Assembly (NCBI GenBank): GCA_016196515.1
Contig: JACPXN010000097.1
Coordinates: forward strand, 1 to 27,582
Direction: 5' to 3'
Length of the DNA: 27,582 nucleotides
Source of the DNA: Candidatus Omnitrophota bacterium
Lineage (GTDB): Bacteria; Omnitrophota; Gorgyraeia; Zapsychrales; Fredricksoniimonadaceae
Under the pieces are notes generated by a model. That model did not search any database. It was not told the DNA's origin and was given only the letters and a program-made list of their open reading frames with translations. Below are positions 3 through 22,198 of the stretch, piece by piece. Every line of letters starts with the position of its first letter. Position 1 is the stretch's first letter. The translations under genes were made by a program, and so were the position numbers.

Positions 3-3000
3 TGGGGCCGTATATTTGCGTTTGCATCGCCCAAGGCAAACCAGGCGGCCGAGGCCTTGGCCCGCATAAAGGCGCAGATCTATAGAGAACTTCAAGGCGG
101 CGTCCCGGCAAAAGGCATCAAGGCGGTTTTTGAAGAACTGCTGGCTTTGGACGAAGAGGCCCGGAAGATATTTGAAAAATGGGGGAGGGACCTTATTCTT
201 AATGCCATTGACCCGGCCATGGGGCTGTGGCTTGTACCGAACATAGGGGAACATGCGCAGGTCCGCGAAGAACAGATCGCCTTGCTGGGGAAATTTCAAT
301 GCCCGTTTATGATCGGCACAGAGACAGCTACTGAGGGACCATCCACGGGTATTTTTAAGTTGGTGATCGAGCCCTGGTTCGCGGCGCAAAAAGCCGAGCT
401 TGAAAAGGAAGGGCTCACCGACGCCTATAGGATGGCCGTTTGTGATATTTTAAACACCGCATTGCGTGAAAAGCCGGGAAGATGGGCAGAGGGGTTCTAT
501 CGGCAGATTTATGATTCATCAGAACAATTTGACCAAATGTTAAAAACAGCTATGGAGAAGTTGACTCAAGAGCCGGGCAAAGAAAAATTTAAAAGAAACG
601 TGGAGTTGGCCAGAAAAAATGTGGCTATGTGCCGGGAACTTTGCGGCGTTTTTGAGGACGCGATGCTGGAGCTTTTGAGCGATTATTCCGGTTTGAGCAA
701 GGAACTTAAAGGCCTGATCATGCGCGAAGCCGGCGCGGCAAAATATCACGCGCTCCATGAGATCGCCAATGAATGGCTGGCCATTTTACAACCAACAAAG
801 TATCAGCAGGAAGAGCCCCTGATGGCGGTCTTTATGGATGCCAAGCGTGCGTATCTCCAAACAGTTTCGGCGCAGATGAATCTTTTGGAAAAAGGGGATT
901 TTGCCCATGTGAGTTTGCGCATGCTCCTGGCCGAGGGCCGTCAACAGCAGGTTGATCTCTTGGCCCAAAGAATAGCGCCGCATTACCGCGAAGGTTTGTT
1001 CAAAGAGCAGGAAGCCGCGGCTTTCTTTGATAACATTGCCGCGGTCCTGTTGGGCGAGGCCGACAGCCGCGTGAAGCTGGACATCAAGATGGAGCACGAT
1101 GGACCCGTGGTCTTAAAGCTCAATTTCGTCCCTACCCCGGGAGAGTTCCGCCGTTTGGAAGATCTGTTGAATAGCAGGCTTGAGGCGGTGATCAATGGGC
1201 AGGGAACAGTTACCTCTCATTATCTTTTGTGCAGCACGAAGAAATATCCCACTTATATCATTGATGCCTCCCGCCCGGATGAAACCAAGGGCCTTTTGCC
1301 CAATGAGGAGGTCATTTTAATGAACGGAAAAATATACCTGCGTCCGGGCAAGACCCGCCGCAGGGAATCCGCGTTACAGGTCGAAGCCGCACAGAAGTTT
1401 GACCGGGCCGTGCGCGTGAGGGCGCCGTCCTCGCGGGTGCGCGTTGGGGCCAATCAGGACACACCGCAGGGGATCAAGTTTGCCGTCGGTGAGAACGGCG
1501 CGGATTTTATCGGGCTGGCGCGCCTTGAGAACATGTGCGACCGGATGGTCTTTTTGACGGCGCGGGAATTCGCGCAAAAGTTTTTGGCCATTGTTGATGC
1601 CGCGAAGGGTAAGCCGGTCACATTGCGCGTGGTGGACATCCCTGAAAAGACAGACAAGGTGCCGGCGCCGTTCGCCTTTGCCCGCAGACAGGGCGATCTC
1701 TGGTGGAAAGACCATCCGTTAGGCAGGGCCGTGACGCGCCAGATCGCCCGCGCGACCCAACAGCTTTTGGAACAACGCAAGACGGCGCAGGTGAAGTTCA
1801 TTCTCCCGATGGTCAATTCGACCGAGGACTTGGACGAGGCCGACGGTCTGTGGAGCCAGGCCATCGGCCGCGCGCCGGACAGGCGTTTAGGGGTCATGGT
1901 TGAAACCAAGGGAGCGCTGGATGATCGCGAGCGTCTGGCGCGCCGGGCCGGGGCAAGCAGTTTCGGCACGAATGACTGGACCGCGGCGCTCTACGGCATT
2001 GACCGCCTTGCGGCGGAAAGCGCAACATTCTACGACAACATCATGCCGCGCATCGTGTGGGGCGAGGCGCATTATGCCCGCCTGGCCAATGAAGGGGGAG
2101 TTATTCCCAGCGTCTGCGGCGACCAGGCCGGGGACAAACGTTTTTGGGTCGTGCGTGATATTTTCAAGCGCAGGGGGATATTGATCGACATTAGCGTGGC
2201 TCCGGCGCTGGTGCCATTGGCCAAGACCTGGATCGATGTTCTGGAACGGCTGGATCCGGGAAAGGTCCCCGGACTATCACTCGTGGAGAACATGGTGGGC
2301 CATATTATGGATTCTCGCTATGAAGACCTTGGCGATAGGGCCAATGAGGCCTTTGACACGGCCTTGCGCGAAGTGGTCAAAACCGTTGACCGCGCGCTGG
2401 GTGAAGAATTACGGGCATTGGATACGACCCCGCCGTTCGTCCCTGACCATGGACCATCCAACGACGGCAAGGTGCGTGATCTGGGGACGCTGGTGGTGAT
2501 GACAGTGGGCTTAGGTTCTTTAAGCGGGTTCTATGGCTTGACCGCGCTGGCTGTATTTGTTTTGTCCGCCGTGTTTATGGCCATGGGCCATTGGCGCAAC
2601 CAAGAAACAGCACAGCAGAAGGTGGAAAAAGAATTGCGCCGTGGTTTGGGCAAGATCATGGAACTGTTCGAGCGGGCCCACGGCACCTCCGCGCAAAATA
2701 AAAATGCTGACCACGTTTTGATCAGAAAATTGCGCGCCGGTGTTATCCGTCACAATATCGACAACCCCTATCGCGTAAAGAAAGGGACCGCTGTTACTAT
2801 TCTGATCAACGGGGATACGATCATAGACGCCCTTCCCCAACGCCTGCGCCCGCGCAATTATCCCATGCAAAAACCGTGGGCCGTTGTCTTTACCTATTTT
2901 GACCATCCGATCCGCCGCTGGGCGCATTTTGAGAGCATGGTGTCCCTCTACGGCCGCGGCGAACCAGGCCGCGAACGTTCCAATCAAAGCACCGGCCCGG

Positions 3001-6000
3001 TGGATTATGTCGCGGACAAGAAGGCGACGAATCATTTGCGCTGGTTTTCAATAGCAGTCGTGGCGGCCTTCCTAGGTGTTGTTACGGCGCACGCGTGGGC
3101 CGTGGGGGTGGCTGTTCTGGGCGTAGGCGTCGCAATGACGGTCATTCTTGTTCCCTTGATATGGGCCCTGCACCATAAAGACAATCAGCGTCATATCCGT
3201 CTTTTAAGCGATGGCCTATTGGAAACAGTCGCTTTGGCCCATGGCATGTCGGACGCATCCAACGCGCTTGTTCCTTTTGATGGCGCCTTTGCCCGCATCG
3301 TCGGCGGGATAGGCGCAAGCCGTAGGGCCATTTTACGTGAATGGGCCAGGTCCTTGACCTTGGTCGATGTTTTGGGACAAAGCTATATTCCTTATTATGG
3401 GATGCGCTTGGATTCTGAAGATATGGAAAGGGTGGAAGATACCGCGCGTGCCACAGCCAGGGATGTCAATATCATTCTTCCTGGTCCCGTGACCCTTGGG
3501 CACAGCGTTTCGGGTGGCGGGCTTCCCATGCAGGAATGGCATTTAAAGGGCTTGAGCGTCTATAAATTATTCCGTATGTTGGTCCGCTTGCCGTTCGTCC
3601 AGAAGAATTTCTTTCAAGGGGTCGTCATATCCCGAGAAACCAATGAGCCCTTTGTCGGCTTGGCCATCCACGGTCTTAATAACCGGATCGGCATGGATAT
3701 TGTGAGAAGTTTGTCCCTGGACGAATCAGCGGCGGGTGTTGAGTTGGTCGGCATCATTGGGCGCAGGGAAGGGTATAGCAACAGACGCTTCCAGCAGATC
3801 TACGCCACGCAGGGCGGTTTGCCCAATGCAGTGATGCGGCAGATCTTTAAGAATATCACCAATCAAAGCTCGGCATTTCTCAATCATGTGCGGTTGCCTG
3901 AGGGTGTTGTGCGTAAAGAGTTCGTTCCCGGCGGGTCTACCGATGCCCTGGCGCGGGCGCAAGTGATCATTCTTGCCGGGCGCATAAATTCTTTTACCGA
4001 AGAAGATGCCCTTGCCCTTATTGTCCTGGCGCCGGCTGTCAATGGCGGCCGGCCAGGCGCCATCATCATTGAGGCAACCCCCTATGCCGCAAGCGACGAG
4101 GCCAGGAAGACATTGGCGGACAGCGGCCGGTTATTGATCAATGCGTCCACCGCCAATATCGGTGAATTGACGGCCATGGCCATGGAATATCAATACCGCT
4201 TGCGCGCGGAGAAATTCAAGCCGCATCACGGCGAATATGTGAAGACCGAGATAACAGGCCGTGTCATCGCTAATGCGTACCGGCAAATGCGCAATTTGCA
4301 GGACATACCGGAGGACCAGCCGCGTCAATATCTTGAAATGGTCGCACGGGAGAACATCAATTACATTCAGAGATTTGATGCCTTGTTGGATTGGCTGTTC
4401 GACCAAACCGAGCGCATGGACCGTTTATCGTCGGTCCTGCGCCAGGAAGAACTGCACCGGCTTTCTCTGCGGTTTGAGCGGGAAACAGGCACGGGGAACG
4501 ATCATCAAGAAGCCGCGCGGAGATTCATCGGCCTTGTCCGCCGGCAAACCCGCCGCGTGCCCGACCAGAGCCGTGATCTGAATTACACGTATTTACTGCG
4601 GCAGACCGTGTTTGAACAAATATCCGGACGGTGGGTCAGTCCCGAGGAGATTGAGAGATGCGTGCCGTTATTATCGGACAAGAGCGCGCAAAACAAAATG
4701 GGGCGGGTGGCGGCGGTGTTCTTGATCGCGGAACGTATTTATAAAGACCAAAAAGAGCGTGGTGTGGTCCAGGGACTTTTAGCCGAGGCCCTTAAGGATG
4801 AGTATTACGCGGTGAATATGCAGGCGGCGCGCGCCATGGTGGTGCATGGGCATGAAGGGGCCCCCGGGGACCTGATCGACGCTTTGGGAACACAAATGGA
4901 CAGCCGCGTGCGTGAGATGATCATGTACGCGCTGATCCACGGGAATTTTAAGATCAACTGGCCGGAGCAAATTTATAAGGCCAGGGAACGATTGGGGACG
5001 GCCAGGGCGGGATTGAAAGATCAATATAAGCGGCGGCGAAAATTTAAGGAAGATCCGGAAAAGACCGCCGCGGTCCAGGCCGAGATTTACGAGGCCGCTC
5101 AACAAGTGGCCAATGCCTCGTTTTTTCTTGGTTCTTTATACCGCGTGCGGGCGCGCGGCGGCGTCGGCGGGGCGGCCGCTTTAGCCGTCCATTTTTATCA
5201 TCAAACAAGCCGGTATTTCCGCCTGGCGACCGGCGAGGCCGGACGCAGGGCCCTGGAATTCAACATTAAGATCGCGGACCTATGGCATGAGATCGGCGAA
5301 GAACGCGGATCTTGGGACGCATTGATTGAAAATGACCGCAAGGCCGTTGCCGCGTTATTGGATGTTTTCTCCGTCGCTGGATCATCTTATTTGATATTTT
5401 CTGGGTCAAAACCGTACGCACAAGTGACCGCCAAAGGGCTTGAGTTCATACGTTCCCAAAACCCAAGGACGGCATTTAAAAAATTATTGATGATCTATGG
5501 TTTTGAGGCCACTGCCGCGGAAGACTTTGCGTATGCCGTCACGGAGTTTTTGCGCCGTAAGCCCCCCACGCAAGACGGGACAAGGGATTTCTGGATGCGC
5601 AAGGAAACGCATTGGGCCGGCCTTAGAAGGGGCGTGAGCGAACTCATGGGGGAATTTTCTCTGAGCGAAGTGGGGCGTGCCGTCAACAAACATGAGATTT
5701 GGTCCCAAAACTCGGTGTGGATGAAACTGATCTTATTAACGGGCTCATATTTATTCGTCCCTGTGGAGTTGAAGTTAAACGCCCGGGCCCCGTACGAGGG
5801 GTTCAATGAACAGGTCGCGGCGCTAGAGGCGCTCGTCCGCAAAATGATCGTCGCAAAAAAGGTCCCTGACTTAAACAAGCAGGGGCTGTCCCCGGAGGCC
5901 CTCGATTTTGTCAAATGGCTGCTCAAAGAAACGGGCGTGTTAAAAGCCGGGCGCAGAGGACAATGGGCCGCGTTCCGCGGCAAGCTGACAAAAGAAGAGA

Positions 6001-9000
6001 AGGAGAAATTGGAGGTATTTAAGGCGGACGCCGGTTCCCGGCGCCTGTTGGATCCCCGGACGGTTGCAAGCGCCATTGACCTGGTGGTCCCGGCATTGCC
6101 CCGGGACATGCTGGCGCCAAAGAAGGTATTTTATATTGAAACCTCCGGCCGTTCGCCGCCTAATGCGACCTTTGTCAACGATGACATTGTTGTGTTCGCA
6201 GGCCCCCAAGTAAAGATCATCCCTTCCTTATTGGCCCGTATTCTTATCCATGAGATCATTGAGTCCTACTGGGTCCAACACCACCCGTCGGTGCGCATGG
6301 AGCGCAGGCATGAGTTGGCCCGCCAGGCCGAGGCATGGCAGGGTATTGCCGCCGAGGGGGCTTCGGACATCATTCAAATGTTTGAGTTAAGGGACAAGCG
6401 GCCCGTGACCGGGCCACTGACCAGACGACACCTTCCTCCGTTCATTGTCCAGCAACGCCTGAAAGCCAAAGACCTGTATGCCGCGTATTTCGATATGCTC
6501 ACCATGTTTGACGGGATATTCGAGCATCCGTTCGAAGCGGAATCCCGGGCTTTGGAAAATTATTGGCATTCGTTCGGATGGGAGCATCTGACCCCCCTGG
6601 CCATACAGTTGCGGGAGATCCGCGAGTGCCAGGACAAGGTGAGACTGTTGGGCGCGCGTTATCAGATCTGGGAGCAGTCGCGCACCACGGCAGAACTCTT
6701 TTTGCGCAAACAACAACTCTATAACCGCGTAGGGCTACCTACGGCCGGATCCATGCCTGTTCAGGCGCAGGATGTGCGCGCGGTTTTCGAGGTCCTGCAG
6801 GATTTGCCGATCCGCGACAGCGCCCAGTTCATTGTCTTGCAGGGCCTTGTCGATGACCTGTTGAACACCTCGTGGTCCGGGGAGATATGCGACGGGCCGG
6901 CCTGGTTCTTCGACCAACTTCGCTTTGCGAAAATACCCGTGGCGGCCATGCATGACAGCCGCAGGGTTTACGTCGATCCCCGCCTGAAAACAAGGCAACG
7001 CACAAAAGACATCCTTTATTACAGAGCGGCCATGGCCGGCCAGCGTTTGTCCGTCCTGGGGTATCCCAAGGAAGCGTGTTTGGCGACGCAGGGCGGGATC
7101 TATGTACATATGAAAGAGCGGGAGAATTACGAGGCCTATAAGACGTATGTGTCCCAACAACAGGAATTGGATGCCCAGGTGCGTCCAAAATTGCGTTTGT
7201 TCCGTCAGTGGGTCTGGGCGCGGCATGTTCGTCGTCATTTCTCCCGCCGTTCGCGGGAACTTATGATCATCAAGGATTATAGGCGTTTGCATCAGGGGTC
7301 TGTGCAGCTGATCCGGATGTCCGGGTTACTGGAACAAATAACGGACGTCAGGGGTCGATTGGACAGGACCTTGCTGGTCCAGCTGACGGGCCGTGCGTCT
7401 AAACAAAACAGGAGAGACCTCAGGTCCCTGCGCCAGGAAGAAGAAAAACTCCACGAAAGGGTCCTTTATTTTCTGGGAACAGGGCCGGACAGACGTGCTT
7501 TAATTCCGAGGTTTTTTGCGCTGATCTGGAGGAAGTTACAGGATGGGACCGACCTCGCCGCTACCCGCGATAGAAAAATATTGACCCCACAGCAGGAACA
7601 AATACTAAGAGAGACATTCCGCGAACAAGAGGAACATGTGCGTAACTTCTCCAAGCCATTGTTCATAAGATATATCAATGAAACGGCTGTCCGTCTTCTG
7701 GCCCTGCAATGGATCACCACGGATCATTTGGCGTATTCTTTAAAGAAGAGGGGTGGGAAAAAGGATATCCGCACCATGAACGGGTTCTTTGATGATTTAA
7801 AAATAATGGGAGCGGATCTGTGGGCAATGCATTATCAAGACCGTTTGAGCAGAAGAGAAAAGATGCTTGTTCATGAAGATCTGGTCAATGCCCGGGACAA
7901 ACAGAAACTTTACGGCGTACTCACCCACGAAGAGGGGGCGATCAGAAGGTTCCCGCATGATTTTAATTTGATCCTGCAGGGCATTGTCGAGTTCGGGCTT
8001 GCCGGGGTCACTGGACAGGAGAGGATCAAAATCAAACAGATGGGTCAGAATGGCCTTAATCGTCCGCAGAAATTGCTTTTAGTGCGCCTGCGGGCATGGC
8101 AGGAAGATATGCAAAGGAGCCCCGGCAATCATAGGTATGGTCTGATTTTTGTAGACTCCCAGATCAAATCATTGCTTAAAGGGGCTGGACGCGGAGTGTT
8201 GGGAATGACGGCGGAAAATTATAGGGACACAATACCCAATTCACTCCAAGGCGGTTTCAATGTGGGCGTGATGGCGGTTGTGGGTTTGATCGGCGCGGCA
8301 CTGTTTGCTTTTATGAGCTTGGCCGCTTCAACTGCCCGTGCCACGGGTCTGTTCGCCGCGCCGGTCGGGGTACAGACAACAGCACAGTCAATGCCGTGGA
8401 TGATGCTCTTGGCCGTGGTATTGGCCGGTGGGTTAATGCTTGGCGCGCGTAGAGTCGCCGCGGGAACCGCGCATAACAATGATCGACAATATTACACAAA
8501 AAAACGTAATGGACAACATGAACAAACCTGCGCCTGTAGAACCGCTCATAATGTACCCCTTTCGTCTGTCAATAATATTATAGAGGTAGAATACAACATT
8601 ACAAAAGAAAAGAACCCTATAAGAAATATCCCTTTTTCGAATGTCCCTGCAACAACTTGCCCGAAAATCAACGTAACGGCTGCCAGGTTCCCAAGATTAA
8701 ACAGGGCTTTACTTAGCTCCTTACGTTGGATCGAATTGAACGTCATTGAAAAGGTAAGCATGATAAAAGACCTCCTGCGGATATTGACGGGGGGAGTTGA
8801 TGTTGTAAAGCGAAGCATGGGGAATGCTTCATTAACGACTATGACAATAAATATATCAATAGATTATGGACCCATGGCCGCAGCCGAAGCCATTGCCACG
8901 CTCGCATTGGATAAAGCGCAAGTCATCGGATATCGCAAAGGAAACCAGCACAGCATTTATACAGTGATCGCCCGCGCGGAGATCCCAGGCCATCAGTTCC

Positions 9001-12000
9001 TGAGCCGCGAATTATTTGATACCGACAGGCCGGGACGTTCCGGCAAATATGACCTGTTGTTCAACGCCCAAGGGCATTTGCTGGCCATTTTCCCTGTGTT
9101 TGGTTTTAGCATTTTACGGCGGCATAAATTCCTGGATTTTTCTCCGTTCTATGTCGCTGTTCCCCGCCTGGATTCTCCCGGTGCATCCGAAAAATGGGAT
9201 GCGTTTTACAAGGAATATTTATCAAACCAGAAGTTGATCGAAGGATATCAGAAGCGTTTTTCCATTTGGGGCAACAGTTATGTGGAGGTGGTCAACGGAC
9301 CCTATGAATACGTGGAGATCAACAAGGTAACAGGGGAATGGGAAGGCCGCGAACTGAATGTGGCCAGGGCCCAGCCGTATTTTGACATGAAGAGTCATTC
9401 TGTGCATCGCGCCCTTATCCCCGTGTTCCCCAGCGTTTACGCGCAGACATCCATTACAAGCGCCAAAGACCGTACCTATTATTCGTCGCTTTGGGCAGAT
9501 ACTCCCGCACCTGTCGGGTTACGGGAAGGCGGCCGCGTCGTTCTCGTCGGACCAGGCTCGGGTCCGGACGCCTGGGTGCTGGCCTTAAAGACAAAGACCG
9601 CCATCAGGGTATTTGGGAAAAATCCCATGGAAGTGGCCAATGTGCGGGCAACGGCCCGCTTGCTTGGTTTTTCCGTGCGGGCCGAAGTAGCGGACAATAT
9701 CATTGATGACCGGGGCCATTTGAGGTTTGACCCGCTGGATTATGATCTGATCGTATGGAACATGCCCAATTATGCGCCGGACTCCGGATATTATGTGAGG
9801 AAAAAGTCCGTCGGATTTGAGTCCATATGGGACGGTGAACACGGAGAAGTGCTCACCCGTTTTGCCATGGGGGTTAAACACGCCGCCCGGCGTAATCCCG
9901 CCATACGCGCATTCATCTGGAACAGCGGGTTTCGCCAGGTGGGGGAAGTGTTTGGCCGCAATGGCTTGTATACACAAAGATATCTTTTGGACAGGTCCAA
10001 TCTTGCGGTTTATCTCATTGGCCGCCGGGCAGCGCAGGAAAATTATAGGGACACAATACCCAATTCATTCCAAGGCGGCTTCAATGTGGGCGTGATGGCG
10101 GTTGCGGGCGTGATCGGTGCTGCCGGTGTGGGGATCATAACATTAACGCTTAAGGGCATGCCGGTACAAAACGGGTGGGGCGCTGTTTTGGTGGTTTTGG
10201 CCGCTGTGGGGTTAATGCTTGGCGCGGGTGGAATCGCCGCGCGTGTTGCGAATGGCGATAAAAAGCGCAAACAGTCCAAAAATGAACAAAAAGATCATAT
10301 AGGGCATCGCAGGGCTCATAGTCATCTCCTTTCACTTAGTAGAATTATAGCACAGGCAAAAAATAATAAAAAAGATAATAGCCCCATTACGAATAACCAG
10401 ACATCGGGCCGTCCTGTCACTGTCTGGCCCAATATAATGAATGGGTACATAGAAACAGTCCTCTGGAGATTTTTAACGGGGGGAGTTGATGTTGTAAAGC
10501 GAAGCATGGGGAATGCTTCATTAACGGCTACGGCGATAAATATATCAATTTTTGGGCGATTTGTCAAATGGACCGTTGCCGCCGACCCCGCCCGCACCAA
10601 GAACAAAATGACCCCGGAGGAGCTGGCCGACTTGAATGCCCGGATGGAGGCGTATATCAAGGAGCATAAACAAGAGGTCCTTTTACAGCCGCCCGCGCAT
10701 GCCCAGGAGAAAGCGCGCGTCATCGCTTTGTTGAGTTCCCGGAAGGAGAATCAGGCTGATGCCAGGGCCCTGGCAGACGCCAAGGTCATCAACGCCCCGC
10801 CGTCTTTGCTGGCCGTTATCCTTGATTCGAAAGCATCCCGCAACAGCAATACCGTCTTTTCCGTGCTTCTTACCATTGGTGGAATAAATTATATAGTCCC
10901 GATCGCAGATATTGAAGCCAGTCTCATGTATGAAGCGGTGAACAGCCGCTTGCGTGCGCAAGGGGCTGGGTACGATGAGATCTGGGAAGCGTATTGTCTC
11001 CTTGGCAAAGACATCACCATAGCATTGGAAGACCATAGCGCGCGCCATGACGCATTCGATGCCATGGGAACACAATTGTTAGTTGGAATTTGTTCAGCAG
11101 GATTGGCGTTAAGCGCCGCCGTGTTGGCTTTGTCCGGTTGTGCTACAGCACCCGAGAAACCTTCTGCGCCGGATTCGGCTGAATTACAAAGAGACTTTGA
11201 TGCGGCGTCCAGCCAGGCAGAGCATTTTTCCCGGGAAAAGACCGATGACCCGAAAGTATTGGAGGACATGGCAGGGATATTAAAAAGATGGATAGGCCCG
11301 GCGACCGTGCAGACCAGGGTGTATGCCCTTCGGGCGTTGGCGTTAAGCGGGGACAAAACAAAGGGTGAAGTGATCGTCAAGTTCGCGCTGAATAACCCGG
11401 AGGCCGATTTGCGCCGAGAAGCAGTTAAGGCCCTGGGAGGGCTCGGGGACAGGAGCGTTGCAGATGATATTGTCAAGCGCTTGTCGGACAAGGACCCCTG
11501 GGTCGTGGCCGAAGCGGCGCGGGTCCTGTGGGATTGGAAGCATGCGGGGGTCGTCAAGCTGTTGACCGACGCTTGGGAGGCGGCACAAGGCAAGGAGGGT
11601 TTCTGGCCAGCGCGGTCTTTGATCGAAGATATTTTACGCAAGGCAGCGGGAGACAGCGATAACTCGATGAGTGGGCCCGCGAAAGAATGGCTCAAAAATC
11701 ATGGGGACACAATACCCAATTCCCCTCGGGCTGGATCTGCTGTGGGCGTGATGGCGGTTGCGGGCGTGATCGGTGCTGCCGGTGTGGGGATCACAACATT
11801 AACGCTTAAGGGCATGCCGGTACAAAACGGGTGGGGCGCTGTTTTGGTGGTTTTGGCCGCTGTGGGGTTAATGCTTGGCGCGCGTAGAGTCGCCGTGGCT
11901 GCCGCGCATCACAATAAAGGTCCCGATCGTAGCGATTACAGCAATAGCCAGATAAGTCCATCCAACACCGTTCATATTATTCCCCCTTCATTCCTAAGCA

Positions 12001-12230
12001 GGATCACTGCTAGTGCATATAGAAGCACGCTGCAACTCATTCCTAGGATCATTATAGCAGGTTCGAAAGCCCCGGCAACTATTTGGCTAAAGATCAATGA
12101 GGCCGCGGCAATGTTGCCTAAGTTAAAAAGCACTTTACTAAAGATCAATGAGGCCGCGGCAATGTTGCCTAAGTTAAAAAGCACTTTACTTAGCTCCTTA
12201 CGTTGGATTTCGGGGAATAGTAAATTCTAA
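3..12230 (+). CDS. Giant multidomain membrane-associated protein, 5'-partial (>4,070 aa)
   Basis: The frame of ORF 57..12230 is also open from nt 3 (WGRIFAFASPKANQAAEAL...), so the TTG at 57 is probably not the true start. Single stop TAA at 12228-12230. Contains several recognisable enzyme-like domains and TM hairpins. Confidence 0.85.
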   Translation, partial: WGRIFAFASPKANQAAEALARIKAQIYRELQGGVPAKGIKAVFEELLALDEEARKIFEKWGRDLILNAIDPAMGLWLVPNIGEHAQVREEQIALLGKFQCPFMIGTETATEGPSTGIFKLVIEPWFAAQKAELEKEGLTDAYRMAVCDILNTALREKPGRWAEGFYRQIYDSSEQFDQMLKTAMEKLTQEPGKEKFKRNVELARKNVAMCRELCGVFEDAMLELLSDYSGLSKELKGLIMREAGAAKYHALHEIANEWLAILQPTKYQQEEPLMAVFMDAKRAYLQTVSAQMNLLEKGDFAHVSLRMLLAEGRQQQVDLLAQRIAPHYREGLFKEQEAAAFFDNIAAVLLGEADSRVKLDIKMEHDGPVVLKLNFVPTPGEFRRLEDLLNSRLEAVINGQGTVTSHYLLCSTKKYPTYIIDASRPDETKGLLPNEEVILMNGKIYLRPGKTRRRESALQVEAAQKFDRAVRVRAPSSRVRVGANQDTPQGIKFAVGENGADFIGLARLENMCDRMVFLTAREFAQKFLAIVDAAKGKPVTLRVVDIPEKTDKVPAPFAFARRQGDLWWKDHPLGRAVTRQIARATQQLLEQRKTAQVKFILPMVNSTEDLDEADGLWSQAIGRAPDRRLGVMVETKGALDDRERLARRAGASSFGTNDWTAALYGIDRLAAESATFYDNIMPRIVWGEAHYARLANEGGVIPSVCGDQAGDKRFWVVRDIFKRRGILIDISVAPALVPLAKTWIDVLERLDPGKVPGLSLVENMVGHIMDSRYEDLGDRANEAFDTALREVVKTVDRALGEELRALDTTPPFVPDHGPSNDGKVRDLGTLVVMTVGLGSLSGFYGLTALAVFVLSAVFMAMGHWRNQETAQQKVEKELRRGLGKIMELFERAHGTSAQNKNADHVLIRKLRAGVIRHNIDNPYRVKKGTAVTILINGDTIIDALPQRLRPRNYPMQKPWAVVFTYFDHPIRRWAHFESMVSLYGRGEPGRERSNQSTGPVDYVADKKATNHLRWFSIAVVAAFLGVVTAHAWAVGVAVLGVGVAMTVILVPLIWALHHKDNQRHIRLLSDGLLETVALAHGMSDASNALVPFDGAFARIVGGIGASRRAILREWARSLTLVDVLGQSYIPYYGMRLDSEDMERVEDTARATARDVNIILPGPVTLGHSVSGGGLPMQEWHLKGLSVYKLFRMLVRLPFVQKNFFQGVVISRETNEPFVGLAIHGLNNRIGMDIVRSLSLDESAAGVELVGIIGRREGYSNRRFQQIYATQGGLPNAVMRQIFKNITNQSSAFLNHVRLPEGVVRKEFVPGGSTDALARAQVIILAGRINSFTEEDALALIVLAPAVNGGRPGAIIIEATPYAASDEARKTLADSGRLLINASTANIGELTAMAMEYQYRLRAEKFKPHHGEYVKTEITGRVIANAYRQMRNLQDIPEDQPRQYLEMVARENINYIQRFDALLDWLFDQTERMDRLSSVLRQEELHRLSLRFERETGTGNDHQEAARRFIGLVRRQTRRVPDQSRDLNYTYLLRQTVFEQISGRWVSPEEIERCVPLLSDKSAQNKMGRVAAVFLIAERIYKDQKERGVVQGLLAEALKDEYYAVNMQAARAMVVHGHEGAPGDLIDALGTQMDSRVREMIMYALIHGNFKINWPEQIYKARERLGTARAGLKDQYKRRRKFKEDPEKTAAVQAEIYEAAQQVANASFFLGSLYRVRARGGVGGAAALAVHFYHQTSRYFRLATGEAGRRALEFNIKIADLWHEIGEERGSWDALIENDRKAVAALLDVFSVAGSSYLIFSGSKPYAQVTAKGLEFIRSQNPRTAFKKLLMIYGFEATAAEDFAYAVTEFLRRKPPTQDGTRDFWMRKETHWAGLRRGVSELMGEFSLSEVGRAVNKHEIWSQNSVWMKLILLTGSYLFVPVELKLNARAPYEGFNEQVAALEALVRKMIVAKKVPDLNKQGLSPEALDFVKWLLKETGVLKAGRRGQWAAFRGKLTKEEKEKLEVFKADAGSRRLLDPRTVASAIDLVVPALPRDMLAPKKVFYIETSGRSPPNATFVNDDIVVFAGPQVKIIPSLLARILIHEIIESYWVQHHPSVRMERRHELARQAEAWQGIAAEGASDIIQMFELRDKRPVTGPLTRRHLPPFIVQQRLKAKDLYAAYFDMLTMFDGIFEHPFEAESRALENYWHSFGWEHLTPLAIQLREIRECQDKVRLLGARYQIWEQSRTTAELFLRKQQLYNRVGLPTAGSMPVQAQDVRAVFEVLQDLPIRDSAQFIVLQGLVDDLLNTSWSGEICDGPAWFFDQLRFAKIPVAAMHDSRRVYVDPRLKTRQRTKDILYYRAAMAGQRLSVLGYPKEACLATQGGIYVHMKERENYEAYKTYVSQQQELDAQVRPKLRLFRQWVWARHVRRHFSRRSRELMIIKDYRRLHQGSVQLIRMSGLLEQITDVRGRLDRTLLVQLTGRASKQNRRDLRSLRQEEEKLHERVLYFLGTGPDRRALIPRFFALIWRKLQDGTDLAATRDRKILTPQQEQILRETFREQEEHVRNFSKPLFIRYINETAVRLLALQWITTDHLAYSLKKRGGKKDIRTMNGFFDDLKIMGADLWAMHYQDRLSRREKMLVHEDLVNARDKQKLYGVLTHEEGAIRRFPHDFNLILQGIVEFGLAGVTGQERIKIKQMGQNGLNRPQKLLLVRLRAWQEDMQRSPGNHRYGLIFVDSQIKSLLKGAGRGVLGMTAENYRDTIPNSLQGGFNVGVMAVVGLIGAALFAFMSLAASTARATGLFAAPVGVQTTAQSMPWMMLLAVVLAGGLMLGARRVAAGTAHNNDRQYYTKKRNGQHEQTCACRTAHNVPLSSVNNIIEVEYNITKEKNPIRNIPFSNVPATTCPKINVTAARFPRLNRALLSSLRWIELNVIEKVSMIKDLLRILTGGVDVVKRSMGNASLTTMTINISIDYGPMAAAEAIATLALDKAQVIGYRKGNQHSIYTVIARAEIPGHQFLSRELFDTDRPGRSGKYDLLFNAQGHLLAIFPVFGFSILRRHKFLDFSPFYVAVPRLDSPGASEKWDAFYKEYLSNQKLIEGYQKRFSIWGNSYVEVVNGPYEYVEINKVTGEWEGRELNVARAQPYFDMKSHSVHRALIPVFPSVYAQTSITSAKDRTYYSSLWADTPAPVGLREGGRVVLVGPGSGPDAWVLALKTKTAIRVFGKNPMEVANVRATARLLGFSVRAEVADNIIDDRGHLRFDPLDYDLIVWNMPNYAPDSGYYVRKKSVGFESIWDGEHGEVLTRFAMGVKHAARRNPAIRAFIWNSGFRQVGEVFGRNGLYTQRYLLDRSNLAVYLIGRRAAQENYRDTIPNSFQGGFNVGVMAVAGVIGAAGVGIITLTLKGMPVQNGWGAVLVVLAAVGLMLGAGGIAARVANGDKKRKQSKNEQKDHIGHRRAHSHLLSLSRIIAQAKNNKKDNSPITNNQTSGRPVTVWPNIMNGYIETVLWRFLTGGVDVVKRSMGNASLTATAINISIFGRFVKWTVAADPARTKNKMTPEELADLNARMEAYIKEHKQEVLLQPPAHAQEKARVIALLSSRKENQADARALADAKVINAPPSLLAVILDSKASRNSNTVFSVLLTIGGINYIVPIADIEASLMYEAVNSRLRAQGAGYDEIWEAYCLLGKDITIALEDHSARHDAFDAMGTQLLVGICSAGLALSAAVLALSGCATAPEKPSAPDSAELQRDFDAASSQAEHFSREKTDDPKVLEDMAGILKRWIGPATVQTRVYALRALALSGDKTKGEVIVKFALNNPEADLRREAVKALGGLGDRSVADDIVKRLSDKDPWVVAEAARVLWDWKHAGVVKLLTDAWEAAQGKEGFWPARSLIEDILRKAAGDSDNSMSGPAKEWLKNHGDTIPNSPRAGSAVGVMAVAGVIGAAGVGITTLTLKGMPVQNGWGAVLVVLAAVGLMLGARRVAVAAAHHNKGPDRSDYSNSQISPSNTVHIIPPSFLSRITASAYRSTLQLIPRIIIAGSKAPATIWLKINEAAAMLPKLKSTLLKINEAAAMLPKLKSTLLSSLRWISGNSKF
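300..2250 (+). other. PTS enzyme I (PtsI)/PEP-utilising enzyme-like region of the giant protein (boundaries approximate)
   Basis: Ordered motif matches to EI: ATEGPSTGIFKLV (~ASPGIAIG), GTVTSHYLL (~GGxTSH phospho-His), GADFIGLARLE (~GAEGIGLFRTE), PVTLRVVD, FILPMV, LGVMVET, FGTNDWT..IDR, VCGDQAGD. Confidence 0.75.
3400..4350 (+). other. Degenerate Glu/Leu/Phe/Val dehydrogenase-like region of the giant protein (boundaries approximate)
   Basis: GPVTLGHSVSGGG (~GVVTGKP..LGGS), AIHGLNNRIG (degenerate QGFGNVG), IIIEATPYAASDEARKTLADSGRLLINASTANIGELTAMAMEY (~IAEGANGPTTPEADEIL..RGILVVPDILANAGGV.VSYFEW). Confidence 0.6.
6240..6330 (+). other. Zincin-like HExxE motif (LIHEIIE...RHELA..AE) within the giant protein
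   Basis: HEIIE at 6249-6263 and a second His at 6309; a variant of the HExxH metal-binding helix. Confidence 0.35.
8213..8280 (+). repeat. Module-boundary direct repeat X, copy 1 (ENYRDTIPNSLQGGFNVGVMAV)
   Basis: 68 nt matching 10037-10104 with 2 mismatches; the core gggacacaatacccaattc is also at 11704. Confidence 0.95.
8433..8549 (-). CDS. Antisense nested small single-TM protein B1, 38 aa (MSGSTGAGLFMLSITFFCVILSIIVMRGSRGDSTRAKH)
   Basis: Hand translation. ATG overlaps the TGA of A1 (ATGA coupling). One hydrophobic helix; C-terminus shared with B2 and B3. Confidence 0.7.
   Translation of the reverse strand: MSGSTGAGLFMLSITFFCVILSIIVMRGSRGDSTRAKH
8546..8761 (-). CDS. Antisense nested small 2-TM protein A1, 71 aa (MLTFSMTFNSIQRKELSKALFNLGNLAAVTLIFGQ...LLTDERGTL)
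   Basis: SD AGGAGGT (plus 8770-8776) lies 8 nt before the ATG. Two hydrophobic helices; homologous to A2 and A3. An in-frame upstream ATG at 8818 is an alternative start. Confidence 0.75.
   Translation of the reverse strand: MLTFSMTFNSIQRKELSKALFNLGNLAAVTLIFGQVVAGTFEKGIFLIGFFSFVMLYSTSIILLTDERGTL
8787..8860 (-). promoter_or_regulatory. Repeat Y copy 1: putative antisense sigma70 promoter TTGATA-N17-GTTAAT plus inverted repeat GAAGCAT-N5-ATGCTTC
   Basis: -35 at 8859-8854, -10 at 8836-8831, IR at 8812-8830. 8787-8837 is identical to 10476-10526; the four differences in 8838-8860 all fall in the -35/-10 spacer. Confidence 0.6.
9520..10020 (+). other. Class I SAM-dependent methyltransferase-like domain of the giant protein (boundaries approximate)
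   Basis: Motif I VVLVGPGSGPD and YDLIVWNMPNY, resembling the NPPY motif of HemK/N6-adenine-type enzymes. Confidence 0.65.
10037..10226 (+). repeat. Module-boundary direct repeat X, copy 2 (linker + TM hairpin)
   Basis: 5' part matches copy 1; 10085-10226 matches 11741-11882 with 1 mismatch in 142 nt. Confidence 0.95.
10212..10319 (-). CDS. Antisense nested small single-TM protein B2, 35 aa (MSPAMPYMIFLFIFGLFALFIAIRNTRGDSTRAKH)
   Basis: SD AAGGAG just upstream, within the end of A2. Hydrophobic helix; RGDSTRAKH* tail. Confidence 0.7.
   Translation of the reverse strand: MSPAMPYMIFLFIFGLFALFIAIRNTRGDSTRAKH
10322..10450 (-). CDS. Antisense nested small membrane protein A2, 42 aa (MYPFIILGQTVTGRPDVWLFVMGLLSFLLFFACAIILLSERR), lacking the N-terminal part of A1
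   Basis: AGAGGA lies 8 nt before the ATG, at the same distance from repeat Y as in A1. Aligns to the C-terminal part of A1/A3. Confidence 0.6.
   Translation of the reverse strand: MYPFIILGQTVTGRPDVWLFVMGLLSFLLFFACAIILLSERR
10476..10549 (-). promoter_or_regulatory. Repeat Y copy 2: putative antisense promoter TTGATA-N17-GTTAAT plus inverted repeat
   Basis: -35 at 10548-10543, -10 at 10525-10520, IR at 10501-10519. Confidence 0.6.
11064..11600 (+). other. Internal lipoprotein-signal-like segment (..AVLALSG-C) followed by HEAT repeats (boundaries approximate)
   Basis: MGTQLLVGICSAGLALSAAVLALSGC with Cys at 11139; HEAT-like repeats RVYALRALAL..., LRREAVKALGGLGD..., DKDPWVVAEAARVL. Confidence 0.6.
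11704..11895 (+). repeat. Module-boundary direct repeat X, copy 3
   Basis: Near-identical to copy 2 over 11741-11882; 11867-11895 is identical to copy 1 at 8432-8460. Confidence 0.95.
11868..11975 (-). CDS. Antisense nested small single-TM protein B3, 35 aa (MNGVGWTYLAIAVIATIGTFIVMRGSHGDSTRAKH)
   Basis: ATGA overlap with the A3 stop; GGGGGA upstream; shared GDSTRAKH* tail. Confidence 0.7.
   Translation of the reverse strand: MNGVGWTYLAIAVIATIGTFIVMRGSHGDSTRAKH
11972..12184 (-). CDS. Antisense nested small membrane protein A3 with duplicated first helix; original 5' end apparently lost
   Basis: Homology to A1 extends upstream (IQRKELSK) but that stretch has no ATG and is bounded by TAG. GTG at 12184 has AAGGAG 9 nt upstream. 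Could be a pseudogene. Confidence 0.55.
   Translation of the reverse strand: MLFNLGNIAAASLIFSKVLFNLGNIAAASLIFSQIVAGAFEPAIMILGMSCSVLLYALAVILLRNEGGII
12087..12190 (+). repeat. Perfect 51-bp tandem duplication (17 codons)
   Basis: ctaaagatcaatgaggccgcggcaatgttgcctaagttaaaaagcacttta occurs at 12087 and 12138. Confidence 0.97.
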
Positions 12231-12232
12231 AA

Positions 12233-12269
12233 TTGACATATTTCAGGGTTTATGATAGATTTAATCTAT
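12233..12269 (+). promoter_or_regulatory. Sigma70 promoter TTGACA-N17-TAGATT (extended -10) with overlapping palindrome ATAGATT-T-AATCTAT
   Basis: -35 at 12233-12238, TG at 12253-12254, -10 at 12256-12261, IR at 12255-12269; the predicted +1 coincides with the ATG at 12268. Confidence 0.65.
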
Positions 12270-13398
12270 GAAAATACCACGTTTTTATCATAATTTAACC
12301 TCTTTTTTAAAACCCAATAAAGTCCTGATCATCTACGGCCCGCGGCAGGTGGGCAAAACTACCTTGATCCGTGATTTTCTCACCACCTATACGGGTCGTT
12401 ACAAACTGGATTCTGGTGACAATGTGCGGACACAAGCCGTTTTAGGTTCTCAGGATTTTGACGGGATCAAAGAATATGCCCAGGGGTATTCTTTAATTGT
12501 CATTGATGAGGCCCAAAGGATCCCCAACATCGGACAGGGATTAAAAATTCTGGTGGATCAGGTCCCCGGTATTCAGGTGATCGCGACTGGCTCTTCCTCT
12601 TTTGAGTTGGCTGGACAAGTAGGGGAGCCGCTGACCGGCAGGAAAACTACGTTGACGTTATATCCGGTTGCACAGATGGAACTGCAAAACCTTTATAATC
12701 CTCATGAATTGAAAGATAATCTGGAGCATTGGCTCGTATTTGGAGGATATCCGGAAGTTACCGCCGCAGAAACGAAGAGCGAAAAGATCCGCCTGCTGGA
12801 AGAACTGGCACAGTCTTATTTGTTCAAGGACATTCTGGAGCTGGAGCGGGTCAAAAATTCCAAGGTCCTCATGGATTTGCTGCGCCTTCTGGCCTTTCAG
12901 ATCGGCCAAGAAGTTTCTTTAAACGAACTGGGCCGGCAGGTCGGGACGGACCACAAGACCGTTGCGCGTTATCTGGATCTTTTTGAAAAAACCTTCGTCA
13001 TTTATAATGTACGGGGATTCAGCCGTAACTTGCGCTCCGAGATCGTGAAAAAGAGCAAATATTATTTTTATGACAACGGTATCCGCAATGCCGTTGTTTC
13101 CAATTTCAACGGCCTGCAACTGCGCAATGATACCGGGGCGCTATGGGAGAATTTTTTGTTTATGGAACGTTTGAAGAAAAGGTCTTATCAGGGGATCTAT
13201 GCCAACAACTATTTCTGGCGGACGTGGGAGCGCCAGGAGATCGATCTGATCGAGGAGCGGGAAGGCAAGGTGTTCGCCTTTGAGTTCAAGTGGGAGGCAA
13301 GGAAGATCAAAGCGCCCGGACAATGGACGCAGGCTTATCCCGAGGCGCTGTTCGAAGTCATTGACAGAGAAAATTATCTTGATTTTATTCTTCGTTGA
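12268..13398 (+). CDS. AAA_14 family ATPase with C-terminal DUF4143 (PD-(D/E)xK-like) domain
   Basis: Walker A GPRQVGKT, Walker B LIVIDE, IATGSS, GGYP, KYYFYDNG, EIDLI...FEFKW. Confidence 0.9.
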   Translation: MKIPRFYHNLTSFLKPNKVLIIYGPRQVGKTTLIRDFLTTYTGRYKLDSGDNVRTQAVLGSQDFDGIKEYAQGYSLIVIDEAQRIPNIGQGLKILVDQVPGIQVIATGSSSFELAGQVGEPLTGRKTTLTLYPVAQMELQNLYNPHELKDNLEHWLVFGGYPEVTAAETKSEKIRLLEELAQSYLFKDILELERVKNSKVLMDLLRLLAFQIGQEVSLNELGRQVGTDHKTVARYLDLFEKTFVIYNVRGFSRNLRSEIVKKSKYYFYDNGIRNAVVSNFNGLQLRNDTGALWENFLFMERLKKRSYQGIYANNYFWRTWERQEIDLIEEREGKVFAFEFKWEARKIKAPGQWTQAYPEALFEVIDRENYLDFILR

Positions 13399-19483: not shown

Positions 19484-19534
19484 GTAGGGGTTCGATTTAT
19501 CGAACCCGCTGGGCGCGATAAATCGCGCCCCTAC
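19484..19534. repeat. GTAG-family REP doublet (REPIN-like), copy 1
   Basis: GTAGGGGTTCGATTTATCGAACCC-gct-GGGCGCGATAAATCGCGCCCCTAC: two inverted 24-nt palindromic units with GTAG/CTAC ends. Confidence 0.85.
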
Positions 19535-19546
19535 ACAGGATTAAAC

Positions 19547-20617
19547 ATGGACATTCGCAATTTATCCTTTGATGAATTGGCACAATATTTAATCTCCATT
19601 GGAGAAAAACCGTTTCGGGCAGGGCAGGTGTTCGAGTGGCTTTACAAGAAAGACGCGTCCACGTTCGAGGACATGACCACCTTGTCCCAGCCGCTGCGCG
19701 CGCGTCTGGCCGCTGATCTTAGGTTTACGCCCGCCGTCATTGCTGACCAACAGAAGTCTGAAGACGGCACGACCAAATTCCTTTTCGAGTTATCCGACGG
19801 CCAGCATGTGGAGGCGGTTTTGATCCCCTCCGGGCCCACGGCCGGGCGCACAACCGCGTGCATCTCCACCCAGGTCGGCTGCAAGTTCGGCTGCCGTTTT
19901 TGTGCCAGCGGTGTTGCCGGCTGGAAACGCAATTTGTCCACGGCCGAGATCATGACCCAGGTGCTTTACGTCAAGCGTGCCGCGGGCAAAAAAAGGCCTT
20001 TGAGCCACATTGTTTTCATGGGCATCGGCGAGCCCATGGACAATTATGATGTTCTGCTCAAAAGCATTCATTTGATCAATTCCGGCAAGGCGGCCCATAT
20101 CGCGGCCCGCCGCATCACGGTGTCCACCAGCGGGGTCGTTCCCAAAATTTTAAAGTTGGCCGAACAGGACCTGCAGATCGAATTGGCCATTTCCCTGCAC
20201 GGGTATGACAACCCGTCGCGCGACGTGCTCATGCCGATCAACACAAAATACCCCATCGAAAAACTGATGGAGGCCTGCCGCGCCTACGGGGCCAGCAAGA
20301 GAAGGCAGATCACGTTTGAGTATATTCTGATCAAAGGTGTCACCGTCACGCCCGAGGCGCCGGCGGCGCTCAAAAAATTGTTCAAAGGCCTTTTGTGCAA
20401 GATGAACCTCATCCCGTATAATCCCGTCGCAGAATATCCCCACCAATGCCCCAGCCATCCGGAAATGCTGGCATTCCGTTCGGAATTGGAAAAAGCGGGC
20501 ATCCACGCCACCATCCGCACGCCCAGGGGCAAGGATGTCAACGCCGCCTGCGGCCAACTGCGCCACGCGCATCAAAAGGGGAACCATATGGCGTCCTCTT
20601 TTGACAAAAATGGATGA
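19547..20617 (+). CDS. rlmN: Dual-specificity 23S rRNA/tRNA adenine C2-methyltransferase (radical SAM)
   Basis: CISTQVGCKFGCRFC, FMGIGEP, ITVSTSG, LAISLH, NLIPYN, DVNAACGQL. Confidence 0.95.
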   Translation: MDIRNLSFDELAQYLISIGEKPFRAGQVFEWLYKKDASTFEDMTTLSQPLRARLAADLRFTPAVIADQQKSEDGTTKFLFELSDGQHVEAVLIPSGPTAGRTTACISTQVGCKFGCRFCASGVAGWKRNLSTAEIMTQVLYVKRAAGKKRPLSHIVFMGIGEPMDNYDVLLKSIHLINSGKAAHIAARRITVSTSGVVPKILKLAEQDLQIELAISLHGYDNPSRDVLMPINTKYPIEKLMEACRAYGASKRRQITFEYILIKGVTVTPEAPAALKKLFKGLLCKMNLIPYNPVAEYPHQCPSHPEMLAFRSELEKAGIHATIRTPRGKDVNAACGQLRHAHQKGNHMASSFDKNG

Positions 20618-20976: not shown

Positions 20977-22137
20977 ATGCAAAACGTTTATCTCGACTAT
21001 GCCGCGACGACGCCTTGCGACCCGCGGGTCGTGGAAGCCCTGCGGCCTTATTTTTATGACACCTTCGGCAATACGTTAAGCCCGCATGCCTTTGGCCGGC
21101 GCGGCCGCAAGGCCGTTGAGGATGCCCGTGAAACAGTGGCCTCTTTTTTGGGCGCCCAGCCGACGGAGATCGTCTTTACGTCATCCGCCACGGAAGCCAA
21201 TAATCACGCCATTTCAGGTGTCGCTTGCGCTTTGAGGTCCAAAGGCAGGCCTGCCTGTCCGGCAGGCAGGCATCTTGTTGTTTCCGCCATTGAGCATCAT
21301 TGCGTCCTTGAACCAGCCCGCCGTTTGATGCAAGAGGGATGCGAGGTCACGTTCGTGTCCCCGGGCAAAGACGGCATCATTTCTCCCGCGGCCATTGAGC
21401 AGGCCCTGCGTCCGGACACCATTTTGATCGCCGTGGCGCACGCCAACAATGAAATAGGCGTCCTTCAACCCGCCGAAGGTATCGGACGCATTGCCCGCGC
21501 AAAAGGTATTTATTTTTTAGTGGACGCGGCGCAAACCGTCGGACATATCCCCGTATCCGTCACCGGCATTCCTTGCGATCTTCTTTCTTTTTCGGCCCAC
21601 AAATTCTACGGTCCCCAGGGTGTCGGCGCTCTTTACATCCGTAAGGGCGTTGAATGCGCGCCGCTGCTTCTGGGAGGCGACCAGGAACGCAATCGTCGTG
21701 CCGGGACGCTCAATGTCCCGGGCATCGTCGGGTTAGGGGAAGCGGTCCGTTTGTGCCGGCCGCTCATGTCCGATGAAATGGCCGCACAGACCGTTTTGCG
21801 CGACCGGATCATCAACGCTGTCCTTCAAGAGGTTCCCGGCGCAGTCCTTAACGGTCATCGCGTTTTACGTTTGCCCAACAATGCCAACTTCTCCTTTGAA
21901 GGCGTCACTGGCGAGGACTTAGTCGCGGCCCTGGACATGGCGGGCATTGCCGTTTCCGTGGGTTCGGCCTGCACGTCGGGCCAGTTGACCCCCTCGCACG
22001 TGCTTAAGGCCATCGGCCTTTCCGATGCCATGGCCCTGGGGGCATTGCGCGTCACCGTCGGCCGCTGGACCACAGCGAAGGATGTCGATTATTTTCTGGA
22101 ACAATTGCGATTAAAGGTGTCGCGATTACGGATGTAG
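20977..22137 (+). CDS. iscS: Group I cysteine desulfurase (IscS/NifS)
   Basis: VYLDYAATTP, FTSSATEANN, SAIEH, VDAAQ, FSAHKFYGPQG (PLP Lys), RAGTLN, VSVGSACTS. ATG at 20977 preferred over TTG at 20974. Confidence 0.92.
   Translation: MQNVYLDYAATTPCDPRVVEALRPYFYDTFGNTLSPHAFGRRGRKAVEDARETVASFLGAQPTEIVFTSSATEANNHAISGVACALRSKGRPACPAGRHLVVSAIEHHCVLEPARRLMQEGCEVTFVSPGKDGIISPAAIEQALRPDTILIAVAHANNEIGVLQPAEGIGRIARAKGIYFLVDAAQTVGHIPVSVTGIPCDLLSFSAHKFYGPQGVGALYIRKGVECAPLLLGGDQERNRRAGTLNVPGIVGLGEAVRLCRPLMSDEMAAQTVLRDRIINAVLQEVPGAVLNGHRVLRLPNNANFSFEGVTGEDLVAALDMAGIAVSVGSACTSGQLTPSHVLKAIGLSDAMALGALRVTVGRWTTAKDVDYFLEQLRLKVSRLRM
21250..21270. repeat. 21-bp palindromic in-frame insertion CCTGCCTG-TCCGG-CAGGCAGG inside iscS
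   Basis: Perfect 8-bp arms; adds PACPAGR into the usual KG[KR]HI/L.S..EH segment. Confidence 0.75.
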
Positions 22138-22186
22138 GGGTTCGATTTATCGAACCCTTTGCGGGCGCGATAAATCGCGCCCCTAC
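22134..22186. repeat. GTAG-family REP doublet, copy 2; supplies the iscS stop codon
   Basis: Both 24-nt units are identical to copy 1, with spacer tttgc; TAG 22135-22137 lies within GTAG. Confidence 0.85.
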
Positions 22187-22198
22187 GGCAAAATAAAC

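Follow-up and report, generated by a model that had tools for sequence, protein, structure and literature searches.

Repeated joints carrying an opposite-strand gene pair in the 3' third of a giant Omnitrophota gene

Overview

The window analyzed here is 27,582 nucleotides (nt) long and is the entire contig JACPXN010000097.1 (C34 in our numbering) of a groundwater Candidatus Omnitrophota metagenome-assembled genome (MAG; 0.94 Mb in 129 contigs, 82.6% complete). It begins within a giant open reading frame (ORF) on the forward strand, 3..12230, of at least 4075 codons, whose 5' end is cut by the contig start and whose stop codon lies at 12228-12230. We consider it probable that the 3' third of this giant gene is composed of three paralogous modules, each ended by one type of joint, that tracts have been exchanged between the joints, and that the payloads lying between them have turned over in frame. 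The joint consists of a left half-palindrome read as a linker, a sense membrane hairpin, an antisense operon of two small genes, here called A and B, and a block, Y, that contains the promoter and leader of this operon. A preliminary description of the locus had listed the linker, the hairpin with its transmembrane (TM) segments and the antisense cassette correctly, but had misplaced the promoter block, which belongs to the minus strand. Its full repeated unit holds for copies 1 and 2. The sense hairpin and the antisense pair are present in all three copies, but block Y only in the first two; the third unit is truncated, with neither block Y nor a payload.

Mosaic identity of the three joints

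A repeat search located repeat X in three copies, at 8213-8299, 10037-10123 and 11693-11779. Further blocks are shared at 8430-8480, 10209-10259 and 11865-11915, and at 8765-8860 and 10454-10549. The spacings of 1824 and 1656 nt between the copies of X are multiples of 3, as had been described, and pairwise blastn gave the same for the offsets of all homologous tracts between units. The changing pattern of identity among the copies was likewise reproduced, in three blocks. Copies 1 and 2 are alike over 8213-8280, where 15 of the 16 informative sites group them against copy 3. In the next block, the 142 nt of 10085-10226, copies 2 and 3 are identical save for a single mismatch at 10138, and the longest exact run between them is 88 nt. 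In the last, at about 8448-8480, copies 1 and 3 are alike and copy 2 deviates. Runs among the 89 informative sites number 13, where 43.6 are expected; none of 100,000 permutations gave a number as low as 13 (P<1e-5). The repeat and its mosaic are confirmed as real and statistically solid.

Within the 142-nt tract the synonymous sites of copies 2 and 3 are identical too, copy 1 encodes a different helix there, and the adjoining cassette DNA is just ~65% identical or cannot be aligned. Identity at synonymous sites beside diverged cassette DNA points to recent copying between joints rather than to common constraint. An exchange of short tracts among the three joints, by recent gene conversion or by a very recent partial duplication, thus appears well supported by the alignments. 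The recent recombination or gene conversion put forward in the preliminary description stands to this extent; the swapping of payloads in frame, which it also included, has indirect support.

The same three copies might go back to a single ancestral module that was duplicated in tandem and then diverged, in which case the patchiness would reflect uneven constraint and the joints would have no role in turnover. The joints are indeed paralogous and lie in one gene, and their 19-nt core (a palindrome arm), the end of the hairpin and block Y (the leader) could be constrained as DNA or RNA. We nevertheless judge this history unlikely, because three groupings along 270 nt (1 with 2, 2 with 3, and 1 with 3) go beyond what uneven constraint would give. 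It also leaves unexplained the synonymous identity over 142 nt in two copies when the third encodes a different helix, and the payloads between the copies are mutually unrelated.

The antisense A-B gene family

A encodes about 70 amino acids (aa) with two TM segments, and B 35-38 aa with one TM segment and a basic tail; the start of B overlaps the stop of A (ATGA). The same pair, with the same overlap, occurs twice within an 8679-codon ORF of a congener. Using a profile search, A was found in 17 of 63 family genomes, with between one and four copies per genome. Each of the 24 distinct copies of A has B behind it, mostly with the ATGA overlap. Seven of the copies are free-standing; their neighbours are mutL, groES or a convergent gene of 1778 codons whose stop they abut. 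A-family proteins of 61-116 aa are called as hypothetical proteins in public data. These comparisons establish A-B as a real gene family with free-standing members, and the overlapping start and stop predict translational coupling. In the A-family tree 12 of 23 inner branches are unresolved, and copies from one genome do not cluster. Several free-standing pairs (at locus L044, 6313-6672 on the minus strand, and at L016, L019 and L025) abut large convergent genes that share one conserved tail, ...FDPAMxAQFKRGDFSGVxxKILDVVP..LLGLKE....

In size and topology A resembles DUF6722 (PF20482), a family of small two-TM proteins without known function. Matches between the two were weak (6 of 26, best E 6.9e-5) and all fell under the Pfam cut-off; the protein-atlas score was 0.88. 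Literature searches on DUF6722 found nothing.

Coding on both strands

The giant frame crosses the nested cassettes without a single stop in 21 of 21 cases, from at least six genera, whereas the same frame in the seven free-standing cassettes contains 3-7 stops each (mean 4.0). The two other opposite frames have 4-20 stops, in nested and free-standing cassettes alike. The relation of the frames is constant in all nested copies: position 1 of A lies opposite position 2 of the giant frame, and the third positions coincide. By the genetic code, the only codons on the A side that can then give a stop in the giant frame are those of Tyr, His and Gln, subject to the wobble base before them, and on the B side they are TTA, CTA and TCA. 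Since the third positions coincide, an open giant frame would cost A and B just synonymous codon choices.

In the frame of A, amino acid identity is 0.337 and the BLOSUM62 score +1.51, and variability rises from codon position 2 through position 1 to position 3, which is a coding pattern. For the giant frame the same nucleotides give 0.254 and +0.51, which is no advantage over a control frame (0.237 and +0.63). These values show protein-level selection on A in the nested copies, with the giant frame apparently just kept free of stops. The giant-frame peptide across A, rich in N, K, S, T, I and R, is on the same comparison a passenger of A's hydrophobic codons. The antisense cassette, present as the preliminary description had it, is therefore more than the mere component it was taken for; it is the sole part of the joint for which protein-level selection is indicated. 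A and B are intact ORFs in all nested copies and substitution in A is of the coding type, as befits an embedded antisense gene, and coding on both strands in the joints appears well supported.

Six-frame codon-usage scoring showed a weak dip of the giant frame over each cassette, which is not decisive alone. The dip would also fit a series of separate genes with internal starts, lying between convergent small operons, so that the giant ORF would not be one translated unit. To this may be added that the frame opposite the hydrophobic A is intrinsically poor in stops (about 4, against 9-11 in other opposite frames), that the giant-frame peptide there is conserved no better than the control, and that an in-frame ATG in the second payload is followed by a segment resembling a signal peptide and bearing a lipobox. 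However, no module ends in a stop, no Shine-Dalgarno (SD) sequence is visible upstream of that internal ATG at 11064, and the contrast between stop-free nested cassettes and the 3-7 stops of every free-standing one is not what separate genes would lead one to expect. For giant Omnitrophota ORFs, moreover, the text of an earlier study reports transcription as a single mRNA and detection in proteomic data (bioRxiv 10.1101/2023.11.21.568195). We regard separate genes as distinctly less probable than a single giant gene read through its joints.

Structure of the joints

Joint 1 opens with a linker at 8215..8242 (+) that reads ENYRDTIPNS and is the left arm of a dispersed intergenic palindrome; its 19-nt core, 8224-8242 in this copy, is identical in all three copies. 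The membrane hairpin follows at 8250..8462 (+), with hydrophobic segments at 8250-8336 and 8385-8462. On the minus strand, B1 (8433..8549) encodes 38 aa with one TM segment and the tail ...RGDSTRAKH. At its 3' end it runs into the last part of the sense hairpin, and its start and the stop of A1 share the bases ATGA. A1 (8546..8761, minus strand) is a canonical family member of 71 aa with two TM segments. Its start at 8761 is preceded by AGGAGG, placed nine bases upstream of the ATG of A; an in-frame ATG at 8818 falls within the leader hairpin. Block Y1 (8762..8860, minus strand), the presumed leader and promoter of A1-B1, contains the SD sequence at 8771-8776, the hairpin at 8812-8830 and an extended -10 element (TGnTATATT) at 8850-8858.

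The second joint has its linker and membrane hairpin at 10037..10259 (+), with the palindrome arm at 10039-10066. B2 (10212..10325, minus strand) encodes 37 aa and A2 (10322..10450, minus strand) only 42 aa, the first helix being deleted relative to the A family. Block Y2 (10451..10567, minus strand) has the leader hairpin and a putative promoter, TTGACA and TATATT separated by 17 nt and with a TG, at 10567-10539; this is the best promoter match of the region. In joint 3, the linker and membrane hairpin occupy 11693..11915 (+), with the palindrome arm at 11695-11722, followed on the minus strand by B3 (11868..11975, 35 aa) and A3 (11972..12184, 70 aa). A3 lacks the N-terminal family motif as well as block Y, and its first helix is doubled through an exact tandem repeat of 51 nt (12087-12137 and 12138-12188) that is in frame on both strands.

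The leader hairpin, with a 7-bp stem and the loop UCCCC, is found at 8812-8830 and 10497-10515 in the window and at 5930-5948 of L044. Nested and free-standing copies alike retain it, and a free-standing one shows a single compensatory base pair. Pairing of CUCC with GGAG in the leader could mask the SD sequence of the operon.

Payloads

Payload 1 (8861..10036, +) had no match in Pfam, NCBIfam or PDB sequence searches, and homologous modules are found in giant ORFs of other genera. A structural model built from five homologues has a predicted local distance difference test (pLDDT) value of 58 overall and ~75 in the C-terminal half. A fold search with this model returned class I methyltransferases, the best by target coverage being HemK2/N6AMT1 with a TM-score of 0.6. 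As modelled, the C-terminal half of payload 1 (~9462-10036) has the fold of a class I S-adenosylmethionine-dependent methyltransferase. Payload 2 (10550..11692, +) has an N-terminal part without assignment, then a hydrophobic segment ending in the lipobox-like LSGC (11064-11141), and then HEAT repeats (~11373-11582).

The preliminary description had likened the arrangement to the cassettes of polymorphic toxins, in which a conserved delivery body would carry exchangeable C-terminal effectors, the small membrane proteins being the immunity factors. A repeated junction does lie ahead of variable C-terminal domains, and content differs between species. Pfam and NCBIfam scans of the ORF and its payloads, however, gave PEP-utilizers_C and HEAT only and no toxin, pre-toxin or Rhs/CdiA domain, the payloads being a methyltransferase fold and HEAT repeats. 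The small genes have no immunity domain; they are antisense and stand ahead of the payload, show conservation instead of varying along with it, and occur also beside mutL and groES. The modules, finally, lie within the ORF and not as orphans behind a stop. The analogy was dropped, and we hold a toxin-like system to be very improbable here.

Possible turnover of giant-gene content

Downstream of the giant gene, a contig of the congener is syntenic with the window over ten genes at 78-95% aa identity. The 8679-codon giant ORF of the congener and that of the window have the cassettes alone in common, and no orthologue of either giant gene was found anywhere in the other genome. Recombination at the joints would explain this wholly different content at the locus of a sister species. 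Giant genes of other relatives contain dispersed direct repeats of 45-240 nt, 86-98% identical and all offset by multiples of 3, some of which adjoin their cassettes.

Among public sequencing runs, the stretch is present in three DNA runs, groundwater metagenomes from a single study. The contigs from these runs are k-mer contigs of depth 2-9 that break at repeats, and none spans a repeat between unique flanks. One variant is without one 51-nt unit of the A3 repeat (12086/12138). In two runs, contigs follow the window to 10581, just past block Y of copy 2, and then differ; in one run, a contig matches the window from 12207 onward and has a different sequence upstream. The variant sequences at 10581 and 12207 are absent from the assembled genome and may possibly represent alternative arrangements of payloads or flanks. 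A second AAA_14 copy behind the loose end at 12207 was considered and rejected, as there is none in the assembly.

These loose ends, the low depth, the lack of contigs crossing a repeat and the state of the MAG (129 contigs, 82.6% complete) might be taken to suggest that the window is an assembly chimera, in which reads of several strains or loci were joined across the repeats. We think this improbable, since the junctions between unique and repeated sequence were reproduced without differences in two independent runs. The longest exact repeat is 88 nt, and a repeat used twice leaves just one path that takes in all segments. In addition, the frame is open, every offset is a multiple of 3, and the same architecture appears in the independent assemblies of relatives.

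The linker and a dispersed palindrome

In its own genome the 19-nt linker core has three sites, all within the window (8224-8242, 10048-10066 and 11704-11722), and the preliminary description had offered it as a marker for modules. This use fails, for the 19-mer is an arm of a widespread intergenic palindrome and has exact matches in 65 unrelated metagenome contigs, where its surroundings are short ORFs. The reverse complement of the 19-mer follows within 150 nt downstream at 29 of 66 sites and lies upstream at 2. The complete element is a perfect palindrome with arms of ~25 nt, the core GGGACACAATAC and a loop of 8-25 nt, dispersed between genes in this Omnitrophota family; it was noted also at loci L219, L205, L210, L212 and L223. 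Arms near-identical to the 19-mer core number 23 in the congener and 15 in another genome. The genome of the window has one complete intergenic copy, on another contig (C48:19331-19372). Rfam had no hit at the palindrome in any of eight metagenome loci. In about a dozen metagenome contigs the 19-mer seems to lie inside an hrpA-like coding region.

A right arm closing the joint was considered as well and rejected, since besides the three left arms the window contains no match to a right one at up to 3 mismatches. Half a palindrome at this position suggests an origin of the linker, and with it of the joint, either in DNA that once lay between genes or in the insertion of a palindrome.

A possible mechanism

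The joints would supply dispersed homology within one reading frame. Where both strands must stay readable, changes by whole codons alone would survive, and recombination or conversion between joints could then duplicate, delete or replace a payload and leave the gene unbroken. That the joints mediate gain, loss or replacement of payloads in frame is plausible, with the indirect support of the repeats, the variants and the differences between congeners. A wider proposal is that they are portable recombination joints for the gain, loss and exchange of enzyme modules in frame, with two-strand coding enforcing the frame, that they stem from gene ends and intergenic DNA that came to be read through, and that giant genes thus grow by swallowing neighbours. 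We offer this tentatively and consider it the less likely part of the picture.

Several observations weigh against the interpretation of the modules and joints given here. No RNA run is among the public runs that contain the stretch. The near-identity of copies 2 and 3 could reflect a single recent partial duplication and not conversion, and the lack of homology with the giant gene of the congener could reflect replacement of the whole gene and not exchange by modules. The deletion or circular junctions between copies of X to which the preliminary description had pointed, and duplications likewise, were not seen in the public contigs, which at depth 2-9 and with breaks at repeats are unable to show rare junctions. 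Protein searches meant to find strain variants, with the C-terminal third and with the X2 junction, gave the window's own protein or nothing. A2, with a helix deleted, and A3, with a helix doubled and the N-terminal motif lost, diverge from the family and may be decaying. In relatives, a clear membrane hairpin does not always stand ahead of the nested cassettes.

The giant gene and its neighbours

The giant ORF encodes a PEP-utilizers_C domain, HEAT repeats, the methyltransferase-fold module, several membrane hairpins and about ten hydrophobic segments. In phylum, size, the many TM helices and the combination of unrelated domains it has the traits of the giant multi-enzyme membrane genes of Omnitrophota. 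The PEP-utilizers_C domain (93 bits) lies at aa 464-744, window 1392-2234. Five relatives lack an orthologue of it and have ordinary phosphoenolpyruvate (PEP) enzymes only. The five-residue junction motif R-[SAP]-E-x-R had 0 matches in the 4075 residues of the giant ORF, 0.34 being expected by chance.

An AAA_14/DUF4143 ATPase gene (12268..13398, +) sits where joint 3 is truncated; the congener has no such gene at its syntenic locus. On another Omnitrophota contig, an AAA_14/DUF4143 gene (L044 2880-4043) is found in the gene order mutS - AAA_14 - mutL - A - B. Ordinary housekeeping genes lie downstream of the giant ORF. The AccA protein of the window is 65-84% identical to those of Candidatus Omnitrophota MAG loci. 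Two intergenic spacers, at 19484-19549 and 22134-22201, contain paired hairpins resembling repetitive extragenic palindromic (REP) elements, with a GTAG head (GTAGGGG...CCCCTAC types); the counterpart of such a spacer in the congener (C24:34557) has the other type of palindrome instead.

Comparison with known systems

The locus resembles the giant multi-enzyme membrane proteins of Omnitrophota (bioRxiv 10.1101/2023.11.21.568195; class 1, bioRxiv 10.64898/2026.06.07.730766) in phylum, in its very long ORF and in its many TM helices. Both papers list PEP/pyruvate dikinase-type, methyltransferase and HEAT domains, and both leave open the origin of giant bacterial genes and of the differences in content between relatives. 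In term searches neither mentions opposite-strand genes, shared joints or conversion between joints; the second treats tandem nucleotide repeats, not dispersed joint repeats (bioRxiv 10.64898/2026.06.07.730766). No published description of nested antisense operons in Omnitrophota giant genes was found. The locus described here offers a concrete unit of change, namely a repeated joint with measurable conversion tracts, in a setting of conserved flanks and of content wholly replaced between congeners. For annotation it is of consequence that gene callers report the giant ORF only.

With polymorphic toxins (CdiA-CT/CdiI, Rhs) the locus shares a conserved junction before variable C-terminal modules, but the defining features of those systems are lacking. 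Dispersed palindromes are familiar as intergenic elements of the REP type and as bacterial interspersed mosaic elements (BIME), and the Rickettsia palindromic elements lie in frame inside genes. The joint is like these in starting with an arm of a dispersed palindrome that is read as protein. It differs in that the window has the left arm only, rather than two arms 8-50 nt apart in an intergenic position.

In pilE/pilS of Neisseria and vlsE of Borrelia, short tracts copied between paralogous segments produce in-frame mosaics. Unlike these systems, the joints lack silent donor cassettes and are not known to form a variable surface epitope, and their copies lie within one ORF, where they separate unrelated domains.

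Embedded antisense overlapping genes include set1A-set1B inside pic. The ano gene of E. coli (PMC5960689) is a further protein-coding ORF lying wholly within a gene on the opposite strand, as A and B do. In contrast to these cases, the host frame here shows stop avoidance only, and the embedded unit is a two-gene operon equipped with a putative promoter and nested repeatedly across many genomes, for which the free-standing paralogues serve as a control. As a well-controlled case of a complete operon antisense within a gene whose frame stays open, it bears on the debate over antisense overlapping genes.

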